This document shows, piece after piece, positions 7,951 to 43,905 of a stretch of DNA of 64,000 bases (positions are counted from its first letter, which is position 1; the number at the start of each line of letters is the position of its first letter). This stretch comes from Sphingobacteriales bacterium (GTDB lineage Bacteria > Bacteroidota > Bacteroidia > Chitinophagales > Chitinophagaceae): assembly GCA_004144185.1 (NCBI GenBank), contig SEFP01000004.1, positions 198,746 to 262,745 on the forward strand, written 5' to 3'. Below the pieces are notes generated by a model, which saw nothing but the letters and a program-made list of their open reading frames with translations, did no database searches and was not told where the DNA came from. The position numbers were made by a program, and so were the translations under genes.

Positions 7951-7999
7951 CCCTTCTTTTCGTCAGGAGTCTCTTAGAGACGCTGAGCAAAAAGAAGGG
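7951..7999. terminator. Compound hairpin between convergent genes (candidate bidirectional terminator)
   Basis: Outer 10-bp arms are CCCTTCTTTT and AAAAGAAGGG. An inner GTCTCT/AGAGAC pairing is also present. The outer arms themselves contain the T run on the left and the A run on the right. Confidence 0.5.
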
Positions 8000-8026
8000 A
8001 AACGGATGCAATCCGGTTTTGAAGGA

Positions 8027-8896: not shown

Positions 8897-8897
8897 A

Positions 8898-9947: not shown

Positions 9948-9981
9948 GAACAGAAGCGAGTGAAAATCCCGAAACCGGGAG

Positions 9982-10839: not shown

Positions 10840-10882
10840 GAAGGCAGTAGATGAGAGAAGAGCAGCAAAAATGCAGTAAAAA

Positions 10883-12226: not shown

Positions 12227-12320
12227 AAAATTAAAACCACTAAGACACGAGACCGGTAAGAGCCACTCCTTCAGGAGGAACGCTTTACAGATCGGGTAGC
12301 TTAGTGGTGACTGAAAAAGA

Positions 12321-12791: not shown

Positions 12792-12921
12792 AGGTTGTTT
12801 AGAAGAACTCAATTAGAAAATGGCTTAAAGACTCAATAATACAGCGCGGGGCTGACAAATGAAAGCGTTGCCGCCCGGAGTCATCAAGGGTCTTAAAAAT
12901 AAACGTACGCAGGAAAGGTAC

Positions 12922-13488: not shown

Positions 13489-13575
13489 GTAGGGGAATTC
13501 AAAATTCAGCGGCAAAAGTAGGGACAGGGCCTCACCTGCCGAAAAAAAACAGGAATCGTCTGTTCCGGAACGCGA

Positions 13576-14826: not shown

Positions 14827-14947
14827 CCTGCGAATGTAGGACGCTGCTTTTTTCCGGAATCCAAAGCAGTGTTTCGAGAAGCAAACGAAAAGCCCGTCGG
14901 AAGAAAGACTACCGACGGGCTTCAGAAAGGCTTTTTTTAAGCTTGGA

Positions 14948-16090: not shown

Positions 16091-16108
16091 GGGATTGGGG
16101 CGTTGAAG

Positions 16109-16330
16109 TTACCAGATAATCGCCCAGCGACCGTTTTCATCAATGCCATAATCCAGTCCATTGCTCATGGCAAGCACCTCCCGGCCGGTTTTGGGATCGT
16201 TTTTCCGGCTGCGTTCGTACACGCGTACGCCGTTATTTTCGCGGGTCAGGTAGTTGATCAGCGCGGGCAAGGTAGGATCAATATCATGCAGCCACTGGCC
16301 GTCTTCTTCCTTTACAAAGGCACTGCTCAT
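16109..16330 (-). CDS. Small conserved hypothetical protein (73 aa)
   Basis: I chose the ATG at 16330 (MSSAFVKEEDGQW...). The longer TTG-initiated version adds an implausible leader. I do not recognise the family. Confidence 0.4.
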   Translation of the reverse strand: MSSAFVKEEDGQWLHDIDPTLPALINYLTRENNGVRVYERSRKNDPKTGREVLAMSNGLDYGIDENGRWAIIW

Positions 16331-16445
16331 AAGAAATATCGTTTCCGGAAACGTGAAAAACATCGGGCCGTAACAGCGCATTCTATAAAAAAAGCGTCTT
16401 CCATCCGGAAAACGCTTTTTAAGAAGCATGAATTTAAAATGCTAT

Positions 16446-17447
16446 TTATTTCTTGGTGTACATCACCTCTTTCACTGCTTTTACGACCTTAACCACCGAA
16501 GGCAACGCAGCTGCCACCAGATTAGGCGCATAGTGCATATTGGTATCGGTAGAAGTAATGCGGCAGATCGGAGCATCGAGGTAATCAAAGGCGTCTTTCT
16601 GCACCCGGTACGTGATCTCGGAACTCACCGAGCCAAACGGCCATTGCTCTTCCACAATCACCAACCGATTGGTTTTCTTCACGCTTTCGATAATCGTTTG
16701 CCAGTCGAGCGGACGGATGGTGCGCAGGTCGATGACTTCGGCGCTGATTCCTTCTTTTTCCAGTTCTTCGGCCGCGCTCAATGCTACTTTCATCATTTTA
16801 TTGAACGACACCATCGTTACATCGGTGCCTTCGCGTACGATTTTGGCTTTGCCGATCGGAATCAGGTATTCTTCTTCCGGAACATCGCCCATATCGCCGT
16901 ACATCACCTCGCTTTCCATGAATACCACCGGATTTTCATCGCGGATAGCGCTTTTCAGCAACCCTTTGGCGTCGTACGGATTGGAAACGGAGATGACTTT
17001 GATGCCGGGAATGTTGGCATACCAGCTTTCAAAAGCCTGTGAGTGCTGGGCACCCAGCTGACCGGCCGAACCGTTGGGACCGCGGAATACGATCGGGCAT
17101 CCGAAGTGGCCACCGCTCATGGAGCGCATCTTGGCCGCGTGGTTCAGAATCTGGTCCAGCGCCAGTACGGCAAAATTCCAGGTCATGAATTCGACTACCG
17201 GACGGGTACCATTGGAGGCCGCGCCTACAGCAATGGCTGCAAAGCCCAGTTCGGCAATCGGCGTATCAATGATCCGCTTGGCACCAAACTCATCCAGCAT
17301 TCCCTGGCTGACTTTGTACGCGCCATTGTATTGGGCCACTTCTTCACCCATCAGAAACACGCGCTCGTCGCGGCGCATTTCTTCCTGTAGTGCTTCGCGC
17401 AGGGCCTGGCGAAACGGAATAGAACGAGGATTGATATCAGCAGCCAT
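16446..17447 (-). CDS. 2-oxoacid (pyruvate-type) dehydrogenase E1 component, beta subunit
   Basis: 333 aa. The N-terminal (pyrimidine-binding) domain and C-terminal domain are typical of E1-beta (MGEEVAQYNGAYKVSQGMLDEFG...DTPIAE). Confidence 0.9.
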   Translation of the reverse strand: MAADINPRSIPFRQALREALQEEMRRDERVFLMGEEVAQYNGAYKVSQGMLDEFGAKRIIDTPIAELGFAAIAVGAASNGTRPVVEFMTWNFAVLALDQILNHAAKMRSMSGGHFGCPIVFRGPNGSAGQLGAQHSQAFESWYANIPGIKVISVSNPYDAKGLLKSAIRDENPVVFMESEVMYGDMGDVPEEEYLIPIGKAKIVREGTDVTMVSFNKMMKVALSAAEELEKEGISAEVIDLRTIRPLDWQTIIESVKKTNRLVIVEEQWPFGSVSSEITYRVQKDAFDYLDAPICRITSTDTNMHYAPNLVAAALPSVVKVVKAVKEVMYTKK

Positions 17448-17549
17448 TAGGGAAAAAAAGAAACAGTTTTGGAAGTGGTGCGCAAAGATAAAAGGCTATC
17501 CCGGAATGCCGTTGCTTTTCCGGCGTCCGAAACCAGAAAATCCGGTTGC

Positions 17550-27858: not shown

Positions 27859-28323
27859 TTACCCTTTAAAAATCCGCTGGTCAAACGGAAACGGCTCCAC
27901 CGAAACTATTTGAATGCAGCTGAAAGCCCCATGCTGTGGGTTGATCAGGATATTGAAATCGCCCTGCACCACCGCTGAGGGAACCTGTAATACAGGTGCT
28001 TTTCCGGACAGCAAAAACGCTTCGCCCAGCTTCTGCGTTTCCGGACCGTGCGGAAACCGGTTCCAATTGGGGGGTAAATCTGCTGGTAGAATATGTTCGA
28101 TGGCCAAGTCGTCCGGAACCGCAATCGTCATCATACAATAATCGGTCGGCAAAGTCGCCAGCGTCAGATGAACCGCTACTTCCGCCATCGCCAGCGAGCG
28201 GTTGGAAGCGGTGTAAATCAGTTCCATACCCACCGGATTCCAGCGGGCGCCGTACAACGCCGCTCCTTTTCCGGAAAGGCTTGTTGAGAACGGCTGCCGG
28301 CACAATCGAAAAACCTCCATCAT
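27859..28323 (-). CDS. RES-domain toxin (NAD+-targeting family)
   Basis: GARWNP (R), YTASNRSLAMAEV (E) and LQVPSAVV...NILINP (S) motifs. The start overlaps the antitoxin stop (TAATG). Confidence 0.85.
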   Translation of the reverse strand: MMEVFRLCRQPFSTSLSGKGAALYGARWNPVGMELIYTASNRSLAMAEVAVHLTLATLPTDYCMMTIAVPDDLAIEHILPADLPPNWNRFPHGPETQKLGEAFLLSGKAPVLQVPSAVVQGDFNILINPQHGAFSCIQIVSVEPFPFDQRIFKG

Positions 28324-28823
28324 TAGGCCAGAATGCCGTGGCTAATACGGGTCAGCTCGGCCAGCACCATATCCTTGCCGTACGAATCGCGCAGCAAGAC
28401 CAGCGGCTGTAAATTCCCTAAGGCAAACGACGGGGTATCCAGCCAGTGCTTCAGGCGTTCCATTGTTCCGAATACGTCCAGTCCGGCCATTGTGACCTCG
28501 GCCATCTCCAGAATTTTCTCGGAATGAATGGGCTTAAAGGCTTTGTCAGCCTGCTTGTAGCGCAACAGCGATTTGGTCGAAAGATCGAGAATGTCGGCCC
28601 AGTCGGTTTCGCTGAGCGGACTGTAATCCTGCACCATGTTGAAAAAAGAATACGGAAGTCCGTTGCGGATCAGCTGTACCAATAGCATTTTATTGGCCAG
28701 CAGTCCGCTGTAAGTCACCGGAGTTCCGGAAAGAAAGCGTTTGTCGATACCTGATTTACGCACCGCGTTCTGCGCTTCGCGGTCGAGCTTGTGCACAATG
28801 GCAACCGGAACATTCAGTGGCAT
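28323..28823 (-). CDS. Xre/MbcA/ParS-type antitoxin (DUF2384 C-terminal toxin-binding domain)
   Basis: C-terminal WLDTPSFALGNLQPLVLL...G...VLAELTRISHGI is typical of DUF2384. It sits upstream of the RES gene. Confidence 0.8.
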   Translation of the reverse strand: MPLNVPVAIVHKLDREAQNAVRKSGIDKRFLSGTPVTYSGLLANKMLLVQLIRNGLPYSFFNMVQDYSPLSETDWADILDLSTKSLLRYKQADKAFKPIHSEKILEMAEVTMAGLDVFGTMERLKHWLDTPSFALGNLQPLVLLRDSYGKDMVLAELTRISHGILA

Positions 28824-28872: not shown

Positions 28873-30012
28873 TTATTGTTTTAATGCCAAGTCTTGTTGT
28901 GCAGCCCAGTTCTGAAGGTCTTGTTTCGTGAGTGCCGCCGCCATCAGTTCCGGAAATTTATCGGGTGTACAGGCAAAGACCGGAATGCCCAGCGTAGCCA
29001 TAAATTCTGCATTGCGATGGTCATAGGAAGGAGCCCCATCGTCGTTGAGTGCCAGTAATACCACGACCTGTACGCCGGCTGCCGTCAGCTCCGTGACCCG
29101 CCTGCGCATGCCTTCCGGATTGCCGCCTTCGTATAAATCCGTCACCAGCACCAGCACGGTATCCAAGGGCCTTGATACGATCTGCTGGCAGTACATAAGC
29201 GCGCGGTTGATGTCGGTTCCGCCACCCAGTTGCACCCCAAACAACAGCTCGACCGGATCTTGTAGCTCTTCGGTCAGGTCGGCCACTTCGGTATCGAACA
29301 CCACGACCTGCGTACGCAACGCCGGAATGGACGCCAGTACGGCCCCAAAGATTCCGGAATACACCACGCTCGAACCCATCGAACCACTCTGGTCGATGCA
29401 CAGCACCACGTCTTTAAGCGCGGTTTGCCGGCGGCCATAGCCAATCCGCGTTTCCGGAATAATGGTTTTATAGTCTTCCTGATAGTGCTTCAGGTTGCGG
29501 CGGATGGTCAGCGGCCAGTTGATTTCGGCATGACGGGGACGTAGTTTCCGGCTGCTCCGGTTGAGGGCGCCGCTGATTGCTTGTTGGGTGGGCTGCTGTA
29601 ACTTTTCAATCAACGCGTCTACCACCTTCCGGACCACCTGTCGCGCGGTGTCTTTTGTTTTATCCGGAATCACCCGGCTCAGCGTCATTAGGGTTGCTAC
29701 CAGATGCACATCCGGGGTCACCGTTTCCAGCGATTCTTTTTCAAACAGCATCTGGGTCAGGTTCAGCCGCTCCATCGCATCCTGCTGCATGACCTGCACA
29801 ACCGGCTGCGGGAAAAACTCCCGGATATCGGCCAGCCATCGACTTACTTTCGGTGAAGACGGCCCCAGTCCGCCGGTGCGCTCGCTCTCATACAACGCTT
29901 CCAGCGCGCCGTCCATACGGGTTTCGGTGGCGCTCAGGGATACGCCCAGTGGCGCGTCTGCGGCCGTGCCCAAAATCAGGCGCCATTTCCGGAGTAACGA
30001 TTCATCAGCCAT
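28873..30012 (-). CDS. VWA-domain protein (YehP/CoxE-like)
   Basis: I chose the ATG at 30012 (MADESLLRKWRLILG), 4 nt after the upstream stop. The MIDAS motif is intact: CIDQSGSM (DxSxS), GGGTDI (T), LVTDLYEGG (D). Confidence 0.8.
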   Translation of the reverse strand: MADESLLRKWRLILGTAADAPLGVSLSATETRMDGALEALYESERTGGLGPSSPKVSRWLADIREFFPQPVVQVMQQDAMERLNLTQMLFEKESLETVTPDVHLVATLMTLSRVIPDKTKDTARQVVRKVVDALIEKLQQPTQQAISGALNRSSRKLRPRHAEINWPLTIRRNLKHYQEDYKTIIPETRIGYGRRQTALKDVVLCIDQSGSMGSSVVYSGIFGAVLASIPALRTQVVVFDTEVADLTEELQDPVELLFGVQLGGGTDINRALMYCQQIVSRPLDTVLVLVTDLYEGGNPEGMRRRVTELTAAGVQVVVLLALNDDGAPSYDHRNAEFMATLGIPVFACTPDKFPELMAAALTKQDLQNWAAQQDLALKQ

Positions 30013-30016
30013 CAGC

Positions 30017-32308
30017 TTAAACAGGTATCGATTTAGAAGAAGAAATGCCCAACAAATCCAGCAATACCGGAATGCTTCGGGCCGCACGCACAGGGTCAAT
30101 AGTTTGAGTGGAGGTTCCGGAAGACGCGCGGCGGGTGCCACCGGTCAGTTTTTCACCAAGCTGGCGTCTTTCGGCCGGATAAAACGTGCTGAACGTCCGG
30201 CGGAGCAAGGGTAGGACCTCGGTAAAAATGGCTTCGTCTAGTCCGGAAACCCATCCATTGATAATCTGCCAGAGCGATTCGTCCAGCAGCAACACCGTAC
30301 CGCTTCCGCTCAAAAACCCTTCTATCCAGTCTGCAACGGCTGCCGGCGGGAGCGCGGCGGAGGTGTTTTGGGCAATCAGCAGCTGTAACTCCGGTGCCGG
30401 TAATACGTTCAGATCTTTCAGTTGCCGGATCGCAAAACCGCGCATCAGGGCTGCAATCGAGTCGGTACCGGCTATCTTTTGTAGGCATTCCTGCCATTGG
30501 TGCTGATACGCGGCGTTTTGCAACAGCGTAACGGCTGCCTGAAGTTCACGGCAGTCCTGCACCAGCTTTTGGGTCGCGTCTTTGTCAATCCCGGTAGCTG
30601 CCAGTGGCAGGCCGATGGTGATGCGGGTAAAAATGCTGTCCAATATTCCGGAAACCAGTTCCGCATCGGTTTTGCGCACATTGCCGTAGCGGATCATCCG
30701 CGCCAGTCCGGGTACAATCTGTACCAGTGCGGTTACATCGTGCGAAGCAGCCGCCAGGTTGGCCAGTTGCCGGGACAGGGTGGTGACCGCTTCCGGAAGT
30801 ACGGCCGGTAAGGCTTTCTCGAGCCACCCGGCCAGTTCCGGAAGCGTGGCGTCCGGGCCGGCTTTCGATTGCAGATACGCGGTTGCAGCAGTGGCTATGG
30901 TATTGCCCCAAACGCCTTTTTCAATGACTTCGATGGTCAGTTCGGGTGACCATTGCAGGCTCCAGGCTTCTTTAAACGTGCCTTTTCCGGAGCTGTGTTG
31001 AACGCGTCCCCAGGAAAGGTCCAGCACCTGCAACCGGTGCAGGAACGTACTGCGGTCCAGATCAAACTCTTTACGCAGATCCAGGATGTATTCTTTGGCC
31101 TCGGGTTGTTGCGGCAACCGCAGCGACTTAGCCGTTTTGTCGATGTCGGATTGCAGCGGCGGGCGGGGTACCTGATCCGGTACGGTACCCATCCGGTTGC
31201 TGACGATCAACTCCCGGCCAATAAGTTGCAGCAGGGTCGGATCGCCAAAGCACATCACGGCCAGCGCGGCATCGTTCAGTTCGGTCAGACCGGGCTTCCA
31301 CAAGTTGCGCAAGGCCGCCAGATTGCTGGCCAGCCGGGTGGCTTCAATGACATGGGCAACCGACATATCCATGCCTTTTTTCCGGAACAGTCCTGCTACT
31401 TGGGATAGCCATCGCACGCCCTCATCTTCAGGATACTGCCAGATGTGATGATACCAGCCGGGCGAGGTAATACCTGCGCCATAGCCACTTTCAAAACTGA
31501 GCCGGTCGTAAGTCCACGGAATCCAGGTGGCTTCCACCTTTACTTTAGGAAGTCCTTTGAGGAGCGCTGCATCGTCTTTGGCTTTAAAGGTACCGGAGAA
31601 GGCGGGCAGGTGCCAGGCACCGCAGATGATGGCGATGTTGGTAAACCCTTCGTTCTCGGCCTGCCGCAACGTTTTGCGCATCCAGGCTTCCCGGATGGCT
31701 TCCCGCGGATCTGCTTTGGGCGGTAGCAGCTCCCGGAGGGTTGTCATCGCTTCCGTGACGGCTTCAAAGGCAGGCTCGGTGTGGTACCGGTGTTCAATCT
31801 GGTGTTCCCACCATTTTTCGCCATCGGTCCATCCGGCTGCTGCTGCCAGATGCGAGATCGGATTGCGGGAAATGACTTCAAGCGTCTCTGGCTCAGCCGC
31901 TTCCGGAAGCTGGGATTCCGGAACTACCACTGGAACTGCCGATTCCGGAGCGGGCAGCGTTTCGGGAGTGGGTGCTTCGGAGATTTCTTTTTGGGCCAGG
32001 GTATGGGCAGCCGGCAAATCCATAAACCGGACCGGGAGCTGCCGGGTACGGGCATACCGGATGGCCTGCCATTCCGGAGAAAATTCAGCAAACGGGTAAA
32101 AGCTGGCCTGGGACGGCGCTTCCGGATTGTACAGCAGCAAAGCTACCGGCGGCTTTAGCTCGGCGTTGTCCAGCCAGTGCAACAATCCTTCGGCTTCGGG
32201 TGGCCCTTCGATCAGCAGCAGATCGGGCGGATGCGTTTCGAGAAAGGTTTTTACCGCACGGGCCGAGCCGGGACCATGATGCCGGATGCCTAAAAGATGT
32301 ACCGCCAT
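30017..32308 (-). CDS. Large DUF5682-like protein (YehM-like)
   Basis: 763 aa with N-terminal VHLLGIRHHGPGSARAV. Size and position between the AAA and VWA genes match YehM/DUF5682 from memory. This is not verified by search. Confidence 0.6.
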   Translation of the reverse strand: MAVHLLGIRHHGPGSARAVKTFLETHPPDLLLIEGPPEAEGLLHWLDNAELKPPVALLLYNPEAPSQASFYPFAEFSPEWQAIRYARTRQLPVRFMDLPAAHTLAQKEISEAPTPETLPAPESAVPVVVPESQLPEAAEPETLEVISRNPISHLAAAAGWTDGEKWWEHQIEHRYHTEPAFEAVTEAMTTLRELLPPKADPREAIREAWMRKTLRQAENEGFTNIAIICGAWHLPAFSGTFKAKDDAALLKGLPKVKVEATWIPWTYDRLSFESGYGAGITSPGWYHHIWQYPEDEGVRWLSQVAGLFRKKGMDMSVAHVIEATRLASNLAALRNLWKPGLTELNDAALAVMCFGDPTLLQLIGRELIVSNRMGTVPDQVPRPPLQSDIDKTAKSLRLPQQPEAKEYILDLRKEFDLDRSTFLHRLQVLDLSWGRVQHSSGKGTFKEAWSLQWSPELTIEVIEKGVWGNTIATAATAYLQSKAGPDATLPELAGWLEKALPAVLPEAVTTLSRQLANLAAASHDVTALVQIVPGLARMIRYGNVRKTDAELVSGILDSIFTRITIGLPLAATGIDKDATQKLVQDCRELQAAVTLLQNAAYQHQWQECLQKIAGTDSIAALMRGFAIRQLKDLNVLPAPELQLLIAQNTSAALPPAAVADWIEGFLSGSGTVLLLDESLWQIINGWVSGLDEAIFTEVLPLLRRTFSTFYPAERRQLGEKLTGGTRRASSGTSTQTIDPVRAARSIPVLLDLLGISSSKSIPV

Positions 32309-33393
32309 TAGTCCAGATCTTTACAGGCCCGGTAGATGTCTTTCCACTCGTCGCGGGGTTTTACGACCGTTTCCAGGTATTCTTTCCACACGATTTTATC
32401 CTGTACCGGATCTTTTACGACAGCACCTAAAATACTGGACGCCAGATCGGTCGCCTTCATCTGACCGTCGCCAAAATACGCTGCCATGGAAAGGCTGTTG
32501 TTCATAACCGAAATGGCTTCGGCAGTGCTCAGGCTGCCACTGGGCGATTTCAGTTTGGCTTTGCCATCAAGAGTCGCGCCGCTTCGCAGTTCGCGGAAGA
32601 TGGTGACTACGCGGCGGATTTCTTCCGCAGCCGGTGGTTCGGCAGGAAGCTCCATTGTTTTGCTGTAAGAGGCTACTCGTTGCCGTACAATGTCCATTTC
32701 TTCTTCCAGCGTATCCGGAACCGGCAGAATCACCGTGTTGAAACGGCGTTTCAAAGCGGCACTAAGGTCATTCACACCTTTATCTCGGTTGTTGGCGGTC
32801 GCAATCAGGTTGAACCCTCGAACGGCCTGCACTTCGGTATTCAGTTCCGGAATGGGCAGCGATTTCTCGGACAGAATGGTAATGAGGGTATCCTGCACAT
32901 CGGCACCCATCCGGGTCAGCTCTTCAATCCGTGCAATCTTACCGGTTTGCATCGCCCGCATCATCGGCGACGCTACCAGAGCATTCTCCGACGGACCTTC
33001 CGCCAGCAGCCGGGCATAGTTCCAGCCGTAGCGGATCGCTTCTTCGCTGGTACCGGCGGTGCCCTGGATCAGCAGGGTACTATCACCGGAGATCGCTGCG
33101 GAAAGGTGTTCGCTGACCCAGCTTTTGGCCGTACCGGGCAGTCCATATAGCAATAAAGCACGGTCGGTCGTGAGCGTGGCTACCGCAATTTCCATCAGCC
33201 GGCGGTTGCCGATGTATTTGGGTGTGATGGTAAACCCGTTGGAAAGCGCGCCGCCGATCAGATAGGTCACTACAGACTGAGGCGTCATATGCCAGCCTTC
33301 CGGACGGCGTCCGGAATCCGCTTTGCGGAGTTCTTCCAGTTCGGTTGCAAATAGATTTTCTGCGTGGTGGCGCAGTACAGGCGTTGAAGTCAT
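32308..33393 (-). CDS. MoxR/AAA_5-type AAA+ ATPase (YehL-like)
   Basis: Walker A LYGLPGTAKS, Walker B-like KIARIEELTR, sensor-1 LIATANNR and Arg-finger region ALKRRF. Confidence 0.85.
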   Translation of the reverse strand: MTSTPVLRHHAENLFATELEELRKADSGRRPEGWHMTPQSVVTYLIGGALSNGFTITPKYIGNRRLMEIAVATLTTDRALLLYGLPGTAKSWVSEHLSAAISGDSTLLIQGTAGTSEEAIRYGWNYARLLAEGPSENALVASPMMRAMQTGKIARIEELTRMGADVQDTLITILSEKSLPIPELNTEVQAVRGFNLIATANNRDKGVNDLSAALKRRFNTVILPVPDTLEEEMDIVRQRVASYSKTMELPAEPPAAEEIRRVVTIFRELRSGATLDGKAKLKSPSGSLSTAEAISVMNNSLSMAAYFGDGQMKATDLASSILGAVVKDPVQDKIVWKEYLETVVKPRDEWKDIYRACKDLD

Positions 33394-34907
33394 GATGGAA
33401 GGAAAGCGTTTTGGGATGCCGGAAAGGCGTGGAGGATGTTTTCTTTGAGCCGGATGAGGGACGTGATCTCTGCAAGGCGTTTTTCCCAGCTTTCACGCAT
33501 ATAGTCACTCATATAGGAGGTGTCGTTGGGCTGTGTCTCGGGTTGCAGCTTTTGCGGATATTTCAATGCGGTAAGCGGCAGCAGGTGCGCATGGCTGTTG
33601 AAAAAGGCTGCGGGATAGTGGTAGGGATGACTGGCTGCATACCGGAGCAGCGGGATATTTAAAGCCTCCGGCCACTCCTGTTGCTGATTGGTGTAATACC
33701 GGAGCAGTGATTCGGGCTGACTGATGGCCATGCGGAGCAAGTAGTTCTGGCGTTCGTCGGCAGGTAACAGCGGTAGGAGCGATTCATGAAATTGTCGGGT
33801 ATCGTTGACCAGCAACCGGGCCCAGGTGGCCTCTTTGAACCGGATGGCCGCTGAGAGTAACGCATTTTTATAAGCGTTTCCTTTGGGAGAAACGGCTTCG
33901 AAAAGTGGTATAATGCTGTCCGGGGAAAGACCCAGCCAGGATTCCCAGAAAGCGGGTGGCGTGTACGTCAGTAAGCGTTGAAACCGGGCATCCGGGGTTT
34001 CCTTTTCGTCCTGAATGGCTTCCAGTCCGGCAAAAACGGTTTCCGGAAGGCGTAGGTCCAGCGTATGCTGGGTTTTAAGTCCCAGAAATTTCTTCTCGGT
34101 TTTCAGGGTTACCAGTTGCCGCATCTGTTCCTGAGCAGTTTGCACCAAACTGCTTTCCGGGAGCTGGAGCAGCAAATTCGTTGCCAGCGCCTGTACTTTC
34201 TTGCTTCGGTCGGTAGCGATGGATTCCAGAAACGGCCCATCCTGAGCGGTCAAATGCGGCTCCAGCGTAGCCAGAAGTGTTTCTTTGACGTCGGCTTTCT
34301 CTTGTTTCCAGACGGCTTCCAGCTCGGTTATCGCACGTGCAGGATCAGTTGTACGCAGCTCCAGCAAAGCCGCTGCACGTTCAGGCGTTTTGCCGGTGCT
34401 CCAGTGGTCTTCCCAGGATTCGCCGGACTCAAAGCGCCAGTCGGGATTGAGGCTGCACAACCAGGCACCTCTGTTTCCGGAAACAGCGCTAACTGCCGAC
34501 CGGAGTGCAGGCTGTTGAGCCGTCAGTTGAAGCAACGGAACCAGCCGTTCTGGAAATACAATACAGTTGCTTTCCCGGCATTGCTGCAACCAGAGTTGAA
34601 GCAGTCCCAAAGAGTTTGACTGTAAGGTGTCCCCTAATATGGCGTCGGCGGCTGTGCTGCAATACGGCTTGGTTTCAGCGGGTGCCGTAGTATCGGCAGG
34701 CTGGGCCGTCGCAGGCACATTCCCGCACCGCCGGTACAGATACAGCGAGGCGGCTGTTTGCAGAAACCGGCTTTCCAGGTCTTCGGTGTTTGGTTGCAAT
34801 CCTTCCGGAAACCCGTCGGGCAGGGCGATGGCCTGAAGCCGTTCCGCTGCGCCCGCTTTTTCGGTTCCGATCAAAGCTACGTCGGTGAGTTGAGTCCAGG
34901 CGTCCAT
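33390..34907 (-). CDS. DUF5691-like helical protein
   Basis: 505 aa, apparently helical-repeat-like. Its placement between the SWIM and AAA genes matches the SWIM/DUF5691/AAA/DUF5682/VWA order I recall from other phyla. This is unverified. Confidence 0.5.
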   Translation of the reverse strand: MDAWTQLTDVALIGTEKAGAAERLQAIALPDGFPEGLQPNTEDLESRFLQTAASLYLYRRCGNVPATAQPADTTAPAETKPYCSTAADAILGDTLQSNSLGLLQLWLQQCRESNCIVFPERLVPLLQLTAQQPALRSAVSAVSGNRGAWLCSLNPDWRFESGESWEDHWSTGKTPERAAALLELRTTDPARAITELEAVWKQEKADVKETLLATLEPHLTAQDGPFLESIATDRSKKVQALATNLLLQLPESSLVQTAQEQMRQLVTLKTEKKFLGLKTQHTLDLRLPETVFAGLEAIQDEKETPDARFQRLLTYTPPAFWESWLGLSPDSIIPLFEAVSPKGNAYKNALLSAAIRFKEATWARLLVNDTRQFHESLLPLLPADERQNYLLRMAISQPESLLRYYTNQQQEWPEALNIPLLRYAASHPYHYPAAFFNSHAHLLPLTALKYPQKLQPETQPNDTSYMSDYMRESWEKRLAEITSLIRLKENILHAFPASQNAFLPS

Positions 34908-36220
34908 CAGAGGAGTGGGGTATAGGTGGTGTTTTGCCAGACGCCCAGCGGCTGATAGTGATTTTCGGCACCCAGCACGGCGGTTTGCAGGTACTGGCCC
35001 CCGCTAACAGCCAGCCAGCTCCAAAGAACCATTTCCGGAACGGAGGGATCCAGGTACATCTGACGTCCGTGTTCGTCTTCCATCCGCCAGGACGCTTCCG
35101 GGGTTCGAACCGGTTTTAAAGCCGCCACTACATACGGCATTCCGTCCAGTAAGGGTGCTGCTGCCAGTACCTGCGATTCCAGATCGGCAACCGCATCCCA
35201 GCCACGGAGTACCGGAACGGATGGGGGCGTGGTTTGTCGCTGGGTGGGCGTTAGCTGTACCCGCAACGGAACCGCAGCCTTGTAATAGCGTACCTCGCCC
35301 CGGAAGCACTCGCCCGCCAATAGATGCAGTGATGTAGCCGCGCCGGGCGCCAGGAATTGCAGAAACAGACCCTTTTGGCCGTCCGCATTGATCAGCCAGT
35401 ATTTTTCCACGGTCAGCGCTCCCTCCCGGCTTTGAGCTTTGCTCAGCACCAGCCAGTCGGTTTCCGGAAGGGGTTCGTTCAGGCTGTCGGCGCTTTGTGG
35501 AAACCCCATAAAGCCCCGTAGTTCCTGCATCAGTTGGGGGCGGGCGTCGCCCAGATTGCGGTAGCCTGAGATCGCAAGATACAGGCGTGCAAAAGCATCA
35601 AGGACCTGTGTTTGCCAGCCCTCGGCATAAAAGTTTGTTTCGCCGATGCCAGCCACGATGCGGGCCAGTCCCGGTAGCTGGGCATCGATCAACCGGCGGC
35701 TTATGTCTTCGAAAAAACGGCTCCCTTTTTCCGGAAACTGCACCAGTCCGCTGCGCACACTGTCTTTCATCCACAGCAGCAACTCGTCCAGACCGGAAGC
35801 GGCTTTGGATTCACGTGCGGCCTGGCGTTTCTGCTGGGCTTTCTCGTCGGGCGCAGCCTTGGTGCGTTCAGCGGGTTCGGCGGTGGTCTTTTGCGCGCGT
35901 TTGTCCAGCCATTCGGCTACCCAGGCAGGTTCCGGAACAGACGAAAATTTAGATGCGTCTTTGGCCTGAAGCAACAGCAGACCCAGCCCATGTTTGCACG
36001 GAAACTTACGGGACGGACAGCTGCATTTAGAAGTGAGCGTAGCGATTTCTACGACCGTCTGGTAGGGTTTGGAACCACTGCCCTGGCAATCGCCCCACAG
36101 GCTTCGGTCGCTGCTGCCGGTTTGCTGCCATTTGGAGCTGTTGGCTAGCGCCTGTCCTGCTTTCTTGGACGCCTCATCGGGTGCGAGCGAAAGAATCTGA
36201 TCTGTTGAAAGAGAAGGCAA
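34907..36220 (-). CDS. SWIM zinc-finger protein (YehQ-like)
   Basis: CSCPSRKFPCKHGLGLLL fits CxCxnCxH. There is no in-frame ATG near the 5' end, so the start is a TTG at 36220. Confidence 0.8.
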   Translation of the reverse strand: MPSLSTDQILSLAPDEASKKAGQALANSSKWQQTGSSDRSLWGDCQGSGSKPYQTVVEIATLTSKCSCPSRKFPCKHGLGLLLLQAKDASKFSSVPEPAWVAEWLDKRAQKTTAEPAERTKAAPDEKAQQKRQAARESKAASGLDELLLWMKDSVRSGLVQFPEKGSRFFEDISRRLIDAQLPGLARIVAGIGETNFYAEGWQTQVLDAFARLYLAISGYRNLGDARPQLMQELRGFMGFPQSADSLNEPLPETDWLVLSKAQSREGALTVEKYWLINADGQKGLFLQFLAPGAATSLHLLAGECFRGEVRYYKAAVPLRVQLTPTQRQTTPPSVPVLRGWDAVADLESQVLAAAPLLDGMPYVVAALKPVRTPEASWRMEDEHGRQMYLDPSVPEMVLWSWLAVSGGQYLQTAVLGAENHYQPLGVWQNTTYTPLL

Positions 36221-36458
36221 ACCGGAGCGCTTTTGGGAGAATTAAAGGTCGGGTGTGCCGTTGAAAATGCGAAAGGACGTTTGAAGAAATCTGGCTGTAA
36301 ACCAAAAATTTCCGGAATGATTTTTGAACAGGAGCGGGGCTCTAAAAATATACCTGTTTTTATTTGCATATGGACAGCGGTCTGGCACAGGATCGGTCGG
36401 TTTTGGCAGCTTCAAAGACGCTGTATTCGGGTTGAATGGTTTCCGGATACGGTTCAAA

Positions 36459-37127
36459 TTACCAATGTTCAAAGTTGGTGTCTTTCAAATGATTGGTGTA
36501 ATCATCAATCGCTTCTTTAAGGACTTTCTTTTGCAGGAGAACTGATTTCAGATCAATTGCATTGTGTTCCCGTGCTTCCAGCAGGGATTGTAGCTCTCGT
36601 TTTTGAGGTGCCGTTGCCGGGCAATTTCCATAATCGGCGGCCTCCTGTGCCCGACGCTGAAGGACGTCTTCCAAGTCTCTGTTGGGATTAACCTGAGCCG
36701 TTGTGCGTTCCAACGAGTATCTATATCGTTCAGTAGGTGGAATTTGTTGACCGAATTGAAGAAAAGGAGCTTGCCGGATGTATTGTGTATGACCTGTAGC
36801 GTTAAAACACAGGTCGCTCCGGTGTGTAGAAATAACCCATTCGCGCGCTCCTGTTCGCTCGATTGAATCGATTTCAAATGCATCATTCAATTCAAGATCG
36901 AGGTCGAAGCTGAAATTGGTTACCTGCTCAAAAACCAGTGTGGCCGGCGAAACCCAAAACGTAAACGAAAGACCGTCAGCATCGGGTTGATTCCACTGAA
37001 AAATATAGTCAATATCCAGTTCCAGCTCGTGCCCGGTAAACCGAAGTGTATAGATGATGTTATCGTGTCAGCCCATGCGCTCAAAATCGTCTGGGGTCCA
37101 GATACGTTTCTTGGGTTGACAATCCAT
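36459..37127 (-). pseudogene. Hypothetical gene interrupted by an in-frame TGA (codon 20)
   Basis: Manual translation from the ATG at 37127 gives MDCQPKKRIWTPDDFERMG-TGA(37068-37070)-HDNIIYTLRFTGHELELDIDYIFQWNQPDADGLSFTFWVSPATLVFEQV... This continues in frame into the track ORF 36459-36890. Confidence 0.45.
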
Positions 37128-38390: not shown

Positions 38391-38837
38391 GGAAAAAGTT
38401 CTTAAGGGTATAAACTACATTTGAAACCGCATTCCGGAATGAGATTCTGTGTCTGTAACTAAAGGTAGCTGGTAAGCAGCAGTCTTCGCTTTCGAATGTT
38501 AGGTACAATCAAATAGAGCTTACCATGCCGTTCAATGGATAACATTGCCAGTCGAATTTCGGAGCCGGCTGGGGCGAAAACAACTTGTCAATCCTGGTTC
38601 TACTGAATTCGTGCATATAGGGTAGTCGATCTTCGAAACACGATACCAACATCACAGAAAAATGCGTCTCTATACAAACGCGGTCTGTGAGTTTTAGGTA
38701 GAGCTTCACGTAGAAGTAAAATTTAAAGGATAAAAGCTCTGTACACAAGGATTTGAAGCTTTAATGGTTACTTGGGAACCAAATGTTTATGTTTTCGGGG
38801 ACTTGAGACAATCGACCCGGAGAAAGATACAAAACGG

Positions 38838-38893
38838 GTTCATCCACTTTTCAAACCCGTTCATCAACTTTTGAGCCCCGTTCATCCACTTTT
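38838..38893. repeat. Three direct repeats GTTCATC(C/A)ACTTTT with exact 21-bp phasing
   Basis: Copies start at 38838, 38859 and 38880. They lie in the 637-bp AT-rich divergent intergenic region between the M28 gene and the giant T9SS gene. Confidence 0.85.
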
Positions 38894-38939
38894 TGAAAAA
38901 AGTGTGTCTTGAAGGTTGATCTTTATTAAAGTTTACTTT

Positions 38940-38963
38940 GCCATGAATCATGCCATGAATCAT
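38940..38963. repeat. Perfect tandem duplication of GCCATGAATCAT
   Basis: Read directly. Each unit contains the near-palindrome ATGAATCAT. The repeat ends 64 nt upstream of the ATG at 39028. Confidence 0.85.
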
Positions 38964-39027
38964 TTTTGTTAAAGTATACTTCTCCTGACAGACGTTGTCT
39001 GCCTGCTCCGTGAAAACGAAAAATATT

Positions 39028-42000
39028 ATGAGAAAAATCCTACTTATCAAAGTAATCACTGCCATTCTACTAGTGTGTACCGTGCCTGGCATTGAGGCAG
39101 ACGCACAGATTTCCCAAACCAACGCTACAGGATCTTTTAGCACGCAGCCTAGTTCTACTTTTACCGGGGCGGGAGAATGGATTTTTTTTTACACGGGTGG
39201 TCTTAGTCAGTGCAGCTTGGTTACCGGGACTTGGATTATTGGAAGAGCAGGCAATCAGAACCCTGTAACCCCCGCCACCTGGAGCACCGTAACCCAAGCT
39301 TACCTGGGAAATACGCTTGGTGGGGCTATTACGGTTTCTTTTAATTGCTATCATACTGGTGGGAATGATGCGACTCTGGATCTTTTCTACGGACCTACAA
39401 CGAACGGTCCCTGGACAACCATACCGGATATCCTTTCCAACGTTGGTTCCTGTGCAAACGTAACCGTACCCAGTTTTAGCGCTCCTGAACCCGGCCCCCT
39501 CTATGTACGCTTCCGCTTCCGACCAACCTACACGTATGCGACTTCCAATTCATCTTTGGAATTGGGCAATATTTCTGTAGTCGAAGCGCCTCTGCCCGCT
39601 TGCAGTGGTCTGCCCACTGCTGGCACTACAATATCCTCCCTTCCGGCTGGCTGTGGCAATGCTGCCATTCCTCTCCGGGTAAGCCCCAGCCCTAATGTGG
39701 CCGGTATTTCCTATCAATGGCAAAAGTCTGCCAATAACAGCACTTGGGTAGATATTACCGGGGCTACCACCAAATACACGTCTGTAACGCAGACGGCCGC
39801 AACCTATTACCGCCGAAAGAGTACCTGTTCGAATAGCGGGCAGACGGCCTATTCTACCGCTGTGCTGGTTACACAAGCCAATCCGGCGCTTCCCTGCTAC
39901 TGTATATCGGGGTCCACAACCGGGCTGGGTAGTCAAATTACCAATCTCACGCTAGGGACTGTTAACAACTCCTCTACATCAACTATCAGTAACGACAGTG
40001 TGGCAATTAGTGGTTCCCAGGGCATTGCCACCGGCAACACGAGTAGATACCTCGATTGGACCGGCAGCACTGTACCCATACCGAACCTGCCCCGGGGATT
40101 ACCGCAGGCATTTTCAGTGAGCCTGGCCGCTTATAATCCGATGACTGCCTTTTTGAAGATATATATTGACTACAACCAGGATGGAGATCTGCTGGACCCG
40201 AACGAATTGGTATATTCCGGTACTCCCAACCTCCTGCCGACTGGTACTGCAACCGGTACCATTACCGTACCGGCAGCGGCGCTGTTGGGAAATACGCTGA
40301 TGCGAATTGTTTCCAATGACACGGCCAGTTCTCTCAGCACGGTAACGCCCTGCAATACCTTTGAGCGGGGGGAAACACATGACTACCGGGTAAATATCAT
40401 GGGCGGCCCGGCCTGTTTCGGTACGCCGGATGTTGCAGTCGTTGCAGGTCCGGCTGATGCCTGCCCGAATCAAGCGTTTGCACTCACAGCAAGCAATTTA
40501 GACCCGTACGGTTTTCCCGGATTGTCGTACCAATGGCAGTCTTCTGCCGCAGGTGCCAATATATGGACCGATTTGCAAGGAGATACTGTACGCACGGGCG
40601 TTTCGTTTCCTACCGGTAAAACCCTTGCTAAAGATTACCGGCTAAAGGTAACCTGCGCCACTAGCGGGCTGTCGTCCTATTCGAATGTCTTCCCGGTTGG
40701 ATTGGGCGTTGGTACCTGCTTCTGCACTGCTGCCATCACCAATGCCTCTGGCTGTCAACGGTGGATCAGCAGCGTAGCCACCACAGGAGCAGTCACAAAC
40801 ATGACCAACCCCAGCGCCTGTACAGCGGGTGGATTTGCAGATTATACAATCTCCGTAACCGGTCCGACGCAGTACCGCGATTACCCGCTGAACCTAAACC
40901 TGACCTCGGCCAACAGCAGCACTGCTTGGAGTATTTACGTAGATTACGATAACGATGGTGCTTTTGCTAGCAATGAGCTGATGTACCAGAACAGTAATAC
41001 AACCGGCGGCACTACAATAGCTGCTTCCTTCGTGATACCACTGACAGCTCCGCTCGGCGTCCACCGGATGCGTATCCGGGCCGATTCCGGCGCAACGGCT
41101 GCTACCGCCTGTACGGCTACGGTATCCGGCGAGACAGAGGATTATATGCTGACCGTAGTGGAAAAGCCGGTATGTACCGGCACACCGGTCCCCGCCACCC
41201 TAATCACCACCCAGCCGTATATCTATTGCGGACCTTTTCCGGATAAGCCCATGACCCTCACTGGTGGTACGCCTACCGGCACCGGCGGGTTTACCGGAAT
41301 CATTACAACCTGGGAAAAATCGTATGATTCGGCTTTCAGCGTCATTATCCCCGCCTATTCTATAATCGGACAAAACCAATCCGCCTATTACCGGGCAAAG
41401 CAAACCTGCGCTACTTCCGGTCAGTCTGCCTATTCCTCCACCATTCTGGTGGCCAATCATGCGCCAACCGCAATTAATATCTCGCCAGCTTCCCCAGCAG
41501 TCTGCGCCGGCTCCGGCGGCACGGTGCTCTCCGCCAGTGTTAACGTTGGCCCTGGTGGTCCTGCGCTTTCCTATGCCTGGACCGCGAATAGCTACTCGGC
41601 CTGCAATAATTGCATCAGCTGCACTAACTGCAACAGCACAACCGTGAATCCGGCGGCCTCTACCACCTTTAACGTAAGTATATCGGGAGGTGGTTGCCCC
41701 GGCACCCTTCTCGTATCCCGGAATGTTACCGTTAACCCTACCCCTACGGTCCTGTCCGCAATTGCTCCTGCGGCCGCCTGTTCCGGTCAGGCCATTACTT
41801 TAACCGGGGGTGCGGATACGCCCGGTATCTACAGTGGTTTTGCGGGACCGTTTGCGCCGTCTAAGTGGAATTTCTCGCAGACGACCTCTAACGGTAAAAT
41901 AATTACTTCCGGAGCACCCAATACTGTTGTATTTATTAGCTCCGACAGCACTGCACTGGCACCCGATGGCGGAAGCGATGACTGGACTATCAACATTCCC

Positions 42001-43905
42001 AATGCCGGAAACATAACCTTCAATTGGGCCTATTCCACCAACGACAGTGCCGGGAACGACTTTGTGCGGTATATTGTAAACGGAGGTACTCCTACAAATC
42101 TTCCCGGCTTCTCGAACAGTGGTTCTAAAACCCAGTCGGGTACCGCCACGATAGCCGTGCCGGCGAACTCATCTTTCACCCTCCGGGGCCGGAGCCGTAC
42201 CAACACCGGCGGCTCATCCACCACCACCATCAGCAACTTTTCGGCACCCGGCGGATTGGCAAGTACTGTGGCCTGGTACGCTGCTCCTACGGGCGGTAGT
42301 CCGCTGGCAAATCCGGTTACGACAGGCGCGCCTGGTACCTACACCTACTACGCCCAGGCTGTGACTGCGGCGGGCTGCGGAAGTGGTTCCCGTATACCAT
42401 CCAACCCGATGACTGTACATGGTGCCGGCTGGTGGACCGGCGCAGCAGACAGCAACTGGAACACGGCCGGCAACTGGTGCGGCGGCATCCCAACCATTAC
42501 TTCCAACCTGGTGATTCCCGGTGCCACCACGGTGCCCAACATGCCGGTGCTCAATGCTGTCGGTTCTGTAAACAATCTGGAGCTGCAAACCGGTGCCTCG
42601 CTTAAGGTATCGGGCACCGGAACGCTCAACCTGTATGGCAGCCTCACCGGCAATGGTACATTCAATGCAGATGCTGCAACCGTAAATCTTGCCGGAACCT
42701 TTCCGCAATCCGTTCCTGTAATGGCAGCGGTGGGCACCCTGTCTGTGAACGGCGGATCTGTAAAAACGCTTTCCGGAAATATTCGTGTCAACACCGCTCT
42801 GAATTTTACCAATGGCATGGTAGATGTAGGCAGCAATACGCTCACGCTGGCGCCCGCGGCCACTGTCACCGGTGCATCTGCCGCTAGTTACATACGCACG
42901 TCGGCTGCCGGCGGTCGTCTCCGGCAGGGCGTGAGTTCCACACCGGTTGTGTTTCCGGTGGGCAATACCACTTATAATCCGGTAATACTCACCAACAGCG
43001 GAACTGCAGATATGTTTGCCGTAGGCGTGCGCAATGAGGTGCTGCTAAACGGAACCACCGGAATCCAGGTAGACCCGCTCAACGCCCAAGTGGTAAACCG
43101 CACCTGGGATGTGGAAGAGCAAACGCCGGGTGGCTCTAACGTAACGATGAAGCTGCAATGGAATGCCGGGGAGACCAACACGCCGCTCTTCGATTACAAC
43201 CATGTTCAGGTAGCGCACTACACCGGAGGCAGCTATAAGCTTGACTCTGCCTATGCGAACCCGAGTCTGGCACCGGCAGCGCTCGGCTATCCCGGTGCTG
43301 GGCCTTACACGGCCACCCGCAGTGGTATCCTGTCGTTTTCGCCCTTCACGGTAACATCATCTTCTATAAGCTCCACAATGCTGCCGGTAACCCTGTTGGC
43401 GTTCCGTGCCCTAAATGAGGGAAGCCGCAACAAAGTAGCGTGGGAAACAGCCGGCGAAGCAGAAATCAGCAGCTATGGGGTAGAGCGTTCCGCAGACGGG
43501 GCGGTCTTCAGCAGCATTGAAGAAATCCCTTCAAAGGGTACTTCCGGAAACTATGTGAGCTATGACCCTCATCCTAAATCTGGTCTTACCTATTACCGGC
43601 TTAAGATCAGGGCAACAGATGGCAGCCAGCGCTATTCCCAAACGGTAAGTGCTTTCCTGAAAAGCAGCGGAACCATAGAAATGACGGTGCAGCCGAATCC
43701 GGCACGGGATGTGCTGACGGTTAATTTATACGGCATACAGGATGGCTTGGTACAGGTAACCGATTTAATCGGGCGTGTAGTAACTACGGTTGCGGTGTCT
43801 GGCAGTGTGGCTCCAGTTGACGTAAGTGGGCTTGCAGCGGGTACTTATTTTATCCGCTACATAAATGGCCCTGTCACCAAGACAAGCACCGTTACAAAGC
43901 AATAG
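39028..43905 (+). CDS. Giant secreted adhesin-like protein (1,625 aa) with GEVED domains, Ig-like modules and T9SS C-terminal domain
   Basis: The ATG at 39028 gives a signal peptide (MRKILLIKVITAILLVCTVPGIEADAQ). There are two GEVED signatures (GETHDYRVNI, GETEDYMLTV) and three modules of the type SYQWQ...YYR.K.TC..SG. The C-terminus is TVQPNPARDVLTVNL...GTYFIRY. Confidence 0.8.
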   Translation: MRKILLIKVITAILLVCTVPGIEADAQISQTNATGSFSTQPSSTFTGAGEWIFFYTGGLSQCSLVTGTWIIGRAGNQNPVTPATWSTVTQAYLGNTLGGAITVSFNCYHTGGNDATLDLFYGPTTNGPWTTIPDILSNVGSCANVTVPSFSAPEPGPLYVRFRFRPTYTYATSNSSLELGNISVVEAPLPACSGLPTAGTTISSLPAGCGNAAIPLRVSPSPNVAGISYQWQKSANNSTWVDITGATTKYTSVTQTAATYYRRKSTCSNSGQTAYSTAVLVTQANPALPCYCISGSTTGLGSQITNLTLGTVNNSSTSTISNDSVAISGSQGIATGNTSRYLDWTGSTVPIPNLPRGLPQAFSVSLAAYNPMTAFLKIYIDYNQDGDLLDPNELVYSGTPNLLPTGTATGTITVPAAALLGNTLMRIVSNDTASSLSTVTPCNTFERGETHDYRVNIMGGPACFGTPDVAVVAGPADACPNQAFALTASNLDPYGFPGLSYQWQSSAAGANIWTDLQGDTVRTGVSFPTGKTLAKDYRLKVTCATSGLSSYSNVFPVGLGVGTCFCTAAITNASGCQRWISSVATTGAVTNMTNPSACTAGGFADYTISVTGPTQYRDYPLNLNLTSANSSTAWSIYVDYDNDGAFASNELMYQNSNTTGGTTIAASFVIPLTAPLGVHRMRIRADSGATAATACTATVSGETEDYMLTVVEKPVCTGTPVPATLITTQPYIYCGPFPDKPMTLTGGTPTGTGGFTGIITTWEKSYDSAFSVIIPAYSIIGQNQSAYYRAKQTCATSGQSAYSSTILVANHAPTAINISPASPAVCAGSGGTVLSASVNVGPGGPALSYAWTANSYSACNNCISCTNCNSTTVNPAASTTFNVSISGGGCPGTLLVSRNVTVNPTPTVLSAIAPAAACSGQAITLTGGADTPGIYSGFAGPFAPSKWNFSQTTSNGKIITSGAPNTVVFISSDSTALAPDGGSDDWTINIPNAGNITFNWAYSTNDSAGNDFVRYIVNGGTPTNLPGFSNSGSKTQSGTATIAVPANSSFTLRGRSRTNTGGSSTTTISNFSAPGGLASTVAWYAAPTGGSPLANPVTTGAPGTYTYYAQAVTAAGCGSGSRIPSNPMTVHGAGWWTGAADSNWNTAGNWCGGIPTITSNLVIPGATTVPNMPVLNAVGSVNNLELQTGASLKVSGTGTLNLYGSLTGNGTFNADAATVNLAGTFPQSVPVMAAVGTLSVNGGSVKTLSGNIRVNTALNFTNGMVDVGSNTLTLAPAATVTGASAASYIRTSAAGGRLRQGVSSTPVVFPVGNTTYNPVILTNSGTADMFAVGVRNEVLLNGTTGIQVDPLNAQVVNRTWDVEEQTPGGSNVTMKLQWNAGETNTPLFDYNHVQVAHYTGGSYKLDSAYANPSLAPAALGYPGAGPYTATRSGILSFSPFTVTSSSISSTMLPVTLLAFRALNEGSRNKVAWETAGEAEISSYGVERSADGAVFSSIEEIPSKGTSGNYVSYDPHPKSGLTYYRLKIRATDGSQRYSQTVSAFLKSSGTIEMTVQPNPARDVLTVNLYGIQDGLVQVTDLIGRVVTTVAVSGSVAPVDVSGLAAGTYFIRYINGPVTKTSTVTKQ

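Follow-up and report, generated by a model that had tools for sequence, protein, structure and literature searches.

We examine a 64,000-nucleotide stretch of DNA from a Sphingobacteriales bacterium (assembly GCA_004144185.1, contig SEFP01000004.1, positions 198,746 to 262,745), which we call the window throughout, and focus on a five-gene operon near its centre. The five genes lie on the minus strand and encode, in gene order, a SWIM zinc-finger protein, a DUF5691 protein, an AAA+ ATPase, a DUF5682 protein and a VWA protein (Table 1). They form one real, tightly packed operon. Re-reading the sequence, we recover the five open reading frames (ORFs) and the four junctions as an original prediction, made from the letters of the window, had placed them: the SWIM and DUF5691 genes overlap by 1 nt at 34907 (TGATG, the DUF5691 start codon sharing that nucleotide with the SWIM stop), the DUF5691 and AAA+ genes by 4 nt at 33390-33393 (ATGA) and the AAA+ and DUF5682 genes by 1 nt at 32308 (TAATG), and a 4-nt gap at 30013-30016 (TAA gctg ATG) separates DUF5682 from VWA. 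The mechanical VWA ORF reaches farther 5', to a GTG at 30141. For the SWIM gene, both the length and the start codon match those of a 100% identical NCBI protein (P0121) from a Sphingobacteriales metagenome-assembled genome (MAG), and the same gene calls are seen on a Logan contig. No transmembrane-like segment is found in any of the five proteins. A scan for sigma-70 promoters and terminators, whose counts did not exceed those in shuffled sequence, found no terminator-like site between the VWA stop and the Xre gene that follows it, and no sigma-70-like promoter site 5' of the SWIM gene, although the scan does not cover Bacteroidota promoters.

Table 1. Coordinates of the operon genes, of adjoining features of the window, and of partner genes and variant arrangements at related loci (locus labels are our own).
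Feature	Locus	Position	Strand	Remarks
SWIM gene	window	34907-36220	-	437 aa, TTG start
DUF5691 gene	window	33390-34907	-	505 aa
AAA+ gene	window	32308-33393	-	361 aa
DUF5682 gene	window	30017-32308	-	763 aa
VWA gene	window	28873-30012	-	379 aa counted from ATG at 30012
Presumed promoter region of operon	window	36221-36458	-	238-bp non-coding gap before SWIM start
Xre antitoxin gene	window	28323-28823	-	above NCBIfam cut-off
RES toxin gene	window	27859-28323	-	above NCBIfam cut-off
Upstream frame with in-frame stop	window	36459-37127	-	222 codons, one in-frame TGA at codon 20 (...FERMG*HDNIIY...)
DUF4132 gene directly after VWA	L002	13453-16407		Chitinophagaceae
DUF4132 gene directly after VWA	L004, L005, L008, L014			Chitinophagaceae (with L002, five loci)
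DUF4132 gene between DUF5682 and VWA	L036	12265-15198
DUF4132 gene between ATPase and DUF5682	L045	434-3448
Variant block	L032 (Trueperaceae MAG)	8515-17481		ATPase, 122-aa ORF, DUF5682, NADAR, VWA, 1125-aa WD40
Putative SWIM-DUF5691 fusion ORF	L076 (Planctomycetota MAG)	5634-8618		994 aa

The family calls of the original prediction (SWIM, DUF5691, AAA_5, DUF5682 and VWA) were each matched by a Pfam profile search, and the catalytic motifs that it had described in the SWIM finger, the AAA+ protein and the metal ion-dependent adhesion site (MIDAS) of the VWA protein are intact in the translations. The AAA+ protein matches AAA_5 (E = 1e-36), and its translation carries Walker A (G84-LPGTAK90-S), Walker B (E157-E158), sensor 1 (N201) and an LKRRF motif with R216/R217; the Walker B reads EE instead of DE, just as it does in the E. 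coli ATPase YehL. Among proteins of solved structure, Midasin and NorQ come closest to it in sequence, and similarity to YehL places it in the YehL subfamily of MoxR ATPases. Two genes downstream of it in the window, the VWA protein matches VWA_CoxE (E = 7e-50, profile positions 5-220 of 222) and has a complete MIDAS (D207, S209, S211, T266, D292). A domain scan of this VWA protein returned VWA-type domains and nothing else, and a sequence search of the PDB with it gave nothing useful.

The SWIM protein matches the Pfam SWIM family (E = 1.5e-5), and the finger residues C66, C68, C75 and H77 are invariant in 55 sequences. No Pfam model covers the C-terminal half, and sequence and profile searches of the PDB gave nothing useful. 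An AlphaFold2 (AF2) model with a predicted local distance difference test score (pLDDT) of 91.8 has the zinc-finger domain at residues 1-95, long helices at 99-240 and two beta-barrels, at 254-330 and at 361-435. Foldseek returns weak matches only: ZSWIM8 with a probability of 0.99 and, for the barrels, the OB-like or eIF5A-type folds of Teb1, POT1, SSB and eIF5A (E of 0.009-0.5). These fold matches, which compare a predicted model, are suggestive only. The DUF5691 protein matches its Pfam family at E = 6e-88. Its orthologues weakly match HEAT_2 (23/56), HEAT (9/56) and HEAT_EZ (9/56), and in the PDB a profile search matches designed alpha-repeat proteins, while a sequence search gave nothing useful; together these matches suggest a HEAT-like repeat scaffold. 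One Planctomycetota MAG joins the two proteins in a single ORF (L076 in Table 1), which matches the window SWIM and DUF5691 proteins with E of 2e-58 and 4e-28. This natural fusion supports a direct SWIM-DUF5691 interaction; the fusion itself is putative, as a sequencing error remains possible.

Now we consider how far the arrangement extends beyond the window. Scanning one genome per species with conserved DUF5682 peptides gave at least 599 matching stretches, at least 593 of them confirmed; 80 of the confirmed stretches were kept as loci, and the window proteins served as queries against them. All five genes are collinear on one strand in 58 of the 80 loci, and contig ends truncate most of the remaining 22. 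The complete block is found in 10 phyla among the kept loci: in Bacteroidota, in Cyanobacteria and their non-photosynthetic relatives, in Chloroflexota, Acidobacteriota, Planctomycetota, Verrucomicrobiota, Pseudomonadota and Actinomycetota, in a Clostridia MAG and in a Desulfovibrionaceae MAG (Mailhella). The SWIM gene comes first in every one of the 58 complete blocks. Median gaps at the junctions are 1 nt from SWIM to DUF5691, 12 nt from DUF5691 to AAA+, 15 nt from AAA+ to DUF5682 and -2 nt from DUF5682 to VWA, the first and the last being the tightest pairs. The matched VWA ORFs cluster near 376-405 aa, and longer mechanical ORFs in high-GC loci resemble start over-calls. Upstream of the block the distance to the next gene usually exceeds 100 bp, and that gene can lie on either strand, which marks the block as a self-contained unit starting at SWIM. 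The five genes are thus conserved as a block across phyla, and we can uphold the claim of the original prediction that they make up one five-component MoxR-VWA system, since order, strand and tight junctions are all kept.

Some loci depart from this architecture. A gene for a DUF4132 protein (YehI/MolR-like, about 980 aa) is an optional sixth member in seven loci, most often directly after VWA (Table 1); the window has no such gene. In a Trueperaceae MAG (L032) the block lacks SWIM and DUF5691 and carries NADAR and WD40 partners, which hint at an ADP-ribose or conflict-type theme in that lineage. In three further loci from Saprospiraceae and Chitinophagales MAGs (L039, L068 and L077; about 10001-12220), a full-length DUF5682 gene stands alone: the 10-kb flanks on both sides hold none of the four partner genes, and its neighbours there (an acyltransferase, an M20 peptidase, DUF4394 and a PDZ protein) are unrelated.

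The original prediction had pointed to a resemblance to E. coli yehL-yehM-yehP. Comparing the proteins of the K-12 yeh locus with those of the window, we find that this resemblance is true homology: the ATPase aligns with YehL at 38% identity over 349 of 361 residues (E = 1e-73), DUF5682 with YehM at 25% identity (E = 7e-34) and VWA with YehP at 34% identity over 368 residues (E = 3e-74), and all three E. coli proteins carry the Pfam families of their window counterparts. The likeness in size that it saw is essentially right (YehL 362, YehM 759 and YehP 378 aa; YehQ has 614 aa). The fourth correspondence did not survive: YehQ aligns with the window SWIM protein in the zinc finger only (BLASTP E = 0.19; hhalign of the family against YehQ, P = 0.13) and is not its orthologue. 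Two other ways of matching the loci were tried and set aside, namely YehQ as a SWIM-DUF5691 fusion (hhalign P = 0.13 with the SWIM family and P = 0.4 with DUF5691) and a derivation of DUF5691 from DUF4132 by divergence (P = 0.002, with 57 columns aligned).

YehL is a named MoxR ATPase subfamily (PMC3893208), described as uncharacterised (PMC3893208, PMC11432383), and loss of hns/stpA relieves the repression of yehL and yehM (PMC3686432). The main text of a Salmonella metal review contains no yeh term. Of 5426 complete E. coli genomes, 5353 (98.7%) carry the yehL-yehQ stretch, in single copy, and 5371 of its 5374 places in these genomes are chromosomal. Near-universal and chromosomal, it follows a core-genome pattern.

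The DUF5682 protein matches its Pfam family at E = 1e-258, a family of 4238 clusters at 50% identity (E up to 1e-3), and sequence and profile searches of the PDB with it gave nothing useful. In the AF2 model, which is confident (pLDDT 84; predicted template modelling score, pTM, 0.74) an alpha/beta domain of about residues 1-300, which we call the head, is followed by a small mixed middle domain and, from about residue 457, by an alpha-solenoid of about 450 residues; a disordered 35-residue insert (114-146) interrupts the head. The original prediction had spoken of two large helical proteins, a description that misses the conserved N-terminal alpha/beta domain of DUF5682, in which certain His and Glu positions never vary. 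In an alignment of 57 sequences that includes the E. coli protein, the positions of the head without any change are G7, R9, H10, E34, R206, E207, M210, C229, G230 and H233. They form a pattern in which one beta-strand ends in GxxH and another in E, followed by R-E-x-x-M and then by G-A-W-H. We take this to be the set of motifs that marks the TIKI/TraB/PrgY/GumN group, whose relatives include ChaN and the erythromycin esterases.

Profile comparisons show a similarity at the level of motifs only. Besides DUF5682 itself, the only recurrent structured-domain Pfam matches of the head are TraB_PrgY_gumN (PF01963; 4/57 heads, best E = 1.9e-4) and DUF5694 (PF18950; 2/57, best E = 6.7e-4, residues 92-245 in L045); a coiled-coil model, CEP85, matches 3/57 members and is read as compositional. 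For direct comparison a TraB profile was made from seven TraB/GumN sequences taken from plasmid records, together with E. coli YbaP. With hhalign, RExxM...GAWH of DUF5682 aligns onto RNxxW...GALH of TraB (P = 0.005, probability 7%) and GIRHH...IEGP onto GSIH...VEAD (P = 0.15), each in the expected register. As a hidden Markov model (HMM), the same profile gave 146 weak matches, of which 29 are DUF5682, against 81 DUF5682 ORFs in the 4684 searched, and the same block is matched each time. A link drawn from YbaP alone or from the eight proteins was rejected as proof: the motif blocks align in register without significance. We consider the TraB/TIKI relationship likely but unproven. The invariant His and Glu suggest a metal-dependent hydrolase or a ligand-binding pocket.

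How might five such proteins work together? The reading that we prefer, and that we believe about as much as we doubt, is a self-contained, cytoplasmic, ATP-driven remodelling machine of five proteins built around the YehL-subfamily MoxR ATPase, with DUF5682 as its working subunit. The genes would be transcribed as a single unit and translationally coupled. The AAA+ protein would be the motor, presumably forming a ring as other MoxR ATPases do, and the CoxE-type VWA protein would dock on it, its complete MIDAS holding an acidic residue of the target. The TraB/TIKI/ChaN-like head of DUF5682 would be a metal-dependent hydrolase or a ligand-binding pocket carried on a HEAT-like solenoid, and it would be opened or licensed when the contact with VWA passes on the ATP-driven remodelling. 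SWIM and DUF5691 would pair up for recognition and as a scaffold, and so recruit the target. From gene spacing, the L076 fusion and the structural models we infer that DUF5682 and VWA are one working pair and SWIM and DUF5691 another. Because the block keeps its five genes and no neighbour, an enzyme encoded next door is a less likely target than DUF5682 itself or some common macromolecule of the cell. A role in maintenance or stress appears more likely than one in phage defence.

Several observations weigh against the remodelling machine as we draw it. The TraB/TIKI relationship is not statistically secure, as the 7% hhalign probability makes plain; the eight-sequence HMM has no match below E = 0.1 (best 0.16 overall and 0.26 to a DUF5682 ORF), and a Foldseek search with the whole DUF5682 model returns exportin-, importin- and adaptin-like solenoids only, none with E < 1e-3, because the C-terminal solenoid masks the head. 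Solitary DUF5682 genes may mean that the partners lie elsewhere in those genomes, or that DUF5682 works alone. Silencing of the E. coli operon by H-NS and StpA is more typical of acquired genes than of maintenance functions. Ring formation and VWA docking are carried over by analogy from other MoxR systems, translational coupling is read from gene spacing, and the searched literature contains no mention of DUF5682 or DUF5691.

A different use of the same parts would be the insertion of a metal or cofactor, in the manner of a chelatase. Class I chelatases consist of a small ATPase, a VWA protein and a large subunit, a layout that the block resembles, and DUF5682 would then be the large, substrate-holding subunit as in CoxD-CoxE, NorQ-NorD, BchI/D/H and CobS/T/N. 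The VWA protein is of the CoxE family, NorQ is one of the solved proteins nearest to the ATPase in sequence, the HEAT_2 and HEAT_EZ repeats that DUF5691 matches are the repeat type of phycobilin lyases, and the superfamily proposed for the DUF5682 head includes the haem-binding ChaN. The partner DUF4132 is the MolR domain, and MolR is reported to be needed for molybdate use (Lee 1990, as cited in PMC8533742); in addition, yehM was mutated in a copper-evolved E. coli line (PMC12409786). The copper observation, however, is a single mutation, and the molybdate genes of Deinococcus did not respond together with its DUF4132 gene (PMC8533742). None of the five proteins matches the CobN or Mg-chelatase H families, and where known MoxR maturation systems adjoin the genes of their clients, the 106 genes that immediately flank the complete blocks hold no common metalloenzyme. 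We regard cofactor insertion as unlikely. The same flanking genes bear on a role in conflict, in which MoxR and VWA would form a threshold switch and the TraB-like domain would be the effector, after the ternary systems of Kaur et al. 2020, where MoxR-vWA pairs serve as switches in predicted conflict systems (PMC7159879). The distribution of the block is patchy and identities between phyla are alike (41-46%), which suggests horizontal transfer; the Trueperaceae variant swaps SWIM and DUF5691 for a WD40 protein and adds NADAR; a RES-Xre pair adjoins the window operon; a few neighbours match PADLOC models, for example Hhe, PDC-S37, PD-T4-6 and MkoA; and H-NS silences the E. coli operon (PMC3686432). 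Against this, DUF4132 alone is seen more than twice (5 times) among the 106 neighbours, which are otherwise varied metabolic and regulatory genes, with no recurrent defence family; their PADLOC matches, judged without a formal enrichment statistic, are sparse, and the models matched are mainly generic ones for kinases or helicases. Neither RES nor Xre occurs in any of the 80 related loci, and on that ground we rule out the pair as part of the system. PADLOC-DB v2 gives no credible match for the five proteins, four of which match no family at all; the ATPase matches IetA twice, below significance (E of 1e-3 to 3e-3), in a stretch of 33 residues around Walker A. With the bpMoxR model the ATPase scores 21 bits against a cut-off of 27, and the five proteins carry no Pfam family for a VMAP, iSTAND, FtsH or beta-propeller third component. 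The architecture is uniform and the VWA protein, domain-scanned in the window, has no variable effector domains, Kaur et al. 2020 list no SWIM or YehL system and do not mention SWIM, YehL or TraB (PMC7159879), and in E. coli yehLMPQ is a single-copy chromosomal fixture of 5353/5426 genomes, unlike typical variable defence islands. We judge a conflict system to be quite improbable. The accessory or defence flavour that the original prediction saw in the neighbourhood thus fades, with PADLOC, the neighbours and the E. coli distribution all speaking against it, and the operon does not look like a phage-defence island.

The SWIM protein and the optional DUF4132 partner also lend themselves to a machine acting on nucleic acid, in which the SWIM/beta-barrel protein binds DNA or RNA, the target is a nucleoprotein and a DUF4132 or WGR protein sometimes takes part, for instance after DNA damage. 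DUF4132 is the only recurrent extra gene (the seven loci above) and also sits beside the E. coli operon together with the WGR-type YehF; molR is listed in the LexA regulon (PMC6590174); and in Deinococcus DRA0166 (DUF4132) and DR2173 (WGR) are induced by mitomycin C via IrrE and DdrO (PMC8533742). According to these two papers, DNA damage induces DUF4132 and WGR proteins in both E. coli and Deinococcus. The weak fold matches of the SWIM C-terminus are to OB folds that bind single-stranded DNA, and a NADAR protein lies inside the Trueperaceae variant. But these OB-like matches are all weaker than E = 1e-3, a search for SOS, Cheo, cyanobacterial LexA and RDRM boxes found 3 matches in 60 upstream regions and likewise 3 in controls, and the window has no DUF4132 gene, so that the link runs through an optional partner only. 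All told, a machine for DNA damage or directed at nucleic acid seems very unlikely to us. Taken one step beyond the remodelling machine that we prefer, the block could represent a new class of ATP-licensed enzymes in which a TraB/TIKI-like hydrolase set on a HEAT solenoid is activated by a MoxR ring together with a MIDAS adaptor, the SWIM/beta-barrel protein selects the target, and a role in DNA damage comes by way of DUF4132 and WGR proteins; this is a speculative extension, and it is unlikely to hold in full.

The surroundings of the operon in the window appear unrelated to it. The RES-Xre pair that the original prediction placed 49 bp downstream of the VWA stop is there and was borne out by NCBIfam, and its two genes overlap by 1 nt. 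Upstream, the decayed gene of the original prediction is the frame with an in-frame TGA; either it was broken recently, or translation starts downstream of that stop. Pfam has no match for the 143 aa that follow the TGA. The other neighbours (isocitrate/isopropylmalate dehydrogenase, amine oxidase, NusB, CoaE, M1 and M28 peptidases, a GEVED protein of the type IX secretion system (T9SS) and triosephosphate isomerase) are housekeeping genes or T9SS cargo.

A palindrome, TTCCGGAA, sets this DNA apart from that of the related loci. It occurs 122 times in the window (for example at 28948, 30115 and 35930) against 1.4 expected, which makes it 15 times commoner than the next 8-mer palindrome (8 copies), whereas related loci of other genomes have at most 0.28 copies per kb; it looks like a genome-specific, selected motif. 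The five-gene block holds 18 copies over 7.3 kb, 13 of them in the same codon phase (nTT-CCG-GAA). The original prediction had counted about 20 copies here, a slight excess, and had rightly seen that the density is native; a block at native density fits long residence in this genome, as had been proposed. Elsewhere in the window, the 1636-aa GEVED/Ig_7/T9SS-tail gene (38995-43905) has only 2 copies in its 4.9 kb, with a TTCCGGAA-free gap at 38440-42770 where GC content is lower (0.478 at 38-40 kb), and this gene may be a more recent arrival than its surroundings.

The operon is, then, an ordinary member of a widespread and catalogued YehL-subfamily MoxR system, whose other proteins have their place in Pfam as DUF5682 and DUF5691, and the five-gene block is among the more widespread conserved bacterial operons without an assigned function. 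What our analysis adds is the predominant architecture among 80 loci, the optional DUF4132 partner, a case that makes defence unlikely and a testable proposal for the DUF5682 head. It singles out residues as targets for mutation, namely H10/H11, E34 and H233 of DUF5682, K90 of the ATPase and D207 of the MIDAS, and since a variant is present in nearly every E. coli genome a model organism is at hand for studying the system. Should the TraB/TIKI-like head indeed be a gated hydrolase, it would be a new use of the MoxR-VWA pair; if the ATP-licensed enzyme reading were true, four y-genes of E. coli K-12 would gain a function, and so would a family that exceeds 4000 clusters at 50% identity.

Comparison with known systems shows what is shared and what is particular. 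The closest is E. coli yehLMPQ, which has the same AAA, DUF5682, VWA order as the window and a SWIM protein in the same operon. It differs in that YehQ comes last, while the window SWIM gene leads the block with DUF5691 behind it; E. coli lacks a DUF5691 gene and has, just upstream, the DUF4132 genes yehH/molR and yehI and the WGR-family yehF, none of which is found in the window. The head of DUF5682 is like members of the TIKI/TraB/PrgY/GumN/ChaN-erythromycin esterase superfamily in having GxxH, E, R-E/N-x-x-M/W and G-A-x-H motifs, in an order and spacing like those of E. coli YbaP and the seven other TraB/GumN proteins, and unlike them in carrying a disordered insert and a fused solenoid, where known members are stand-alone or secreted. 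Like the MoxR-vWA ternary conflict systems, the block joins a MoxR-vWA pair to further large components, the iSTAND vWA proteins of those systems have a CoxE-type N-terminal helical domain as the window VWA protein does (PMC7159879), and one variant block, L032, carries a WD40 protein; the block departs from them in having no VMAP, iSTAND or FtsH component, no variable VWA effector domains and no defence-island context. Finally, with CoxD-CoxE, NorQ-NorD, CbbQ-CbbO and RavA-ViaA the block shares an AAA_5-type MoxR gene near a VWA partner with a MIDAS. Those pairs adjoin the enzyme that they mature, whereas no enzyme family recurs in the 106 genes flanking the block, and here it is SWIM, DUF5691 and DUF5682 that travel with the MoxR-VWA pair.

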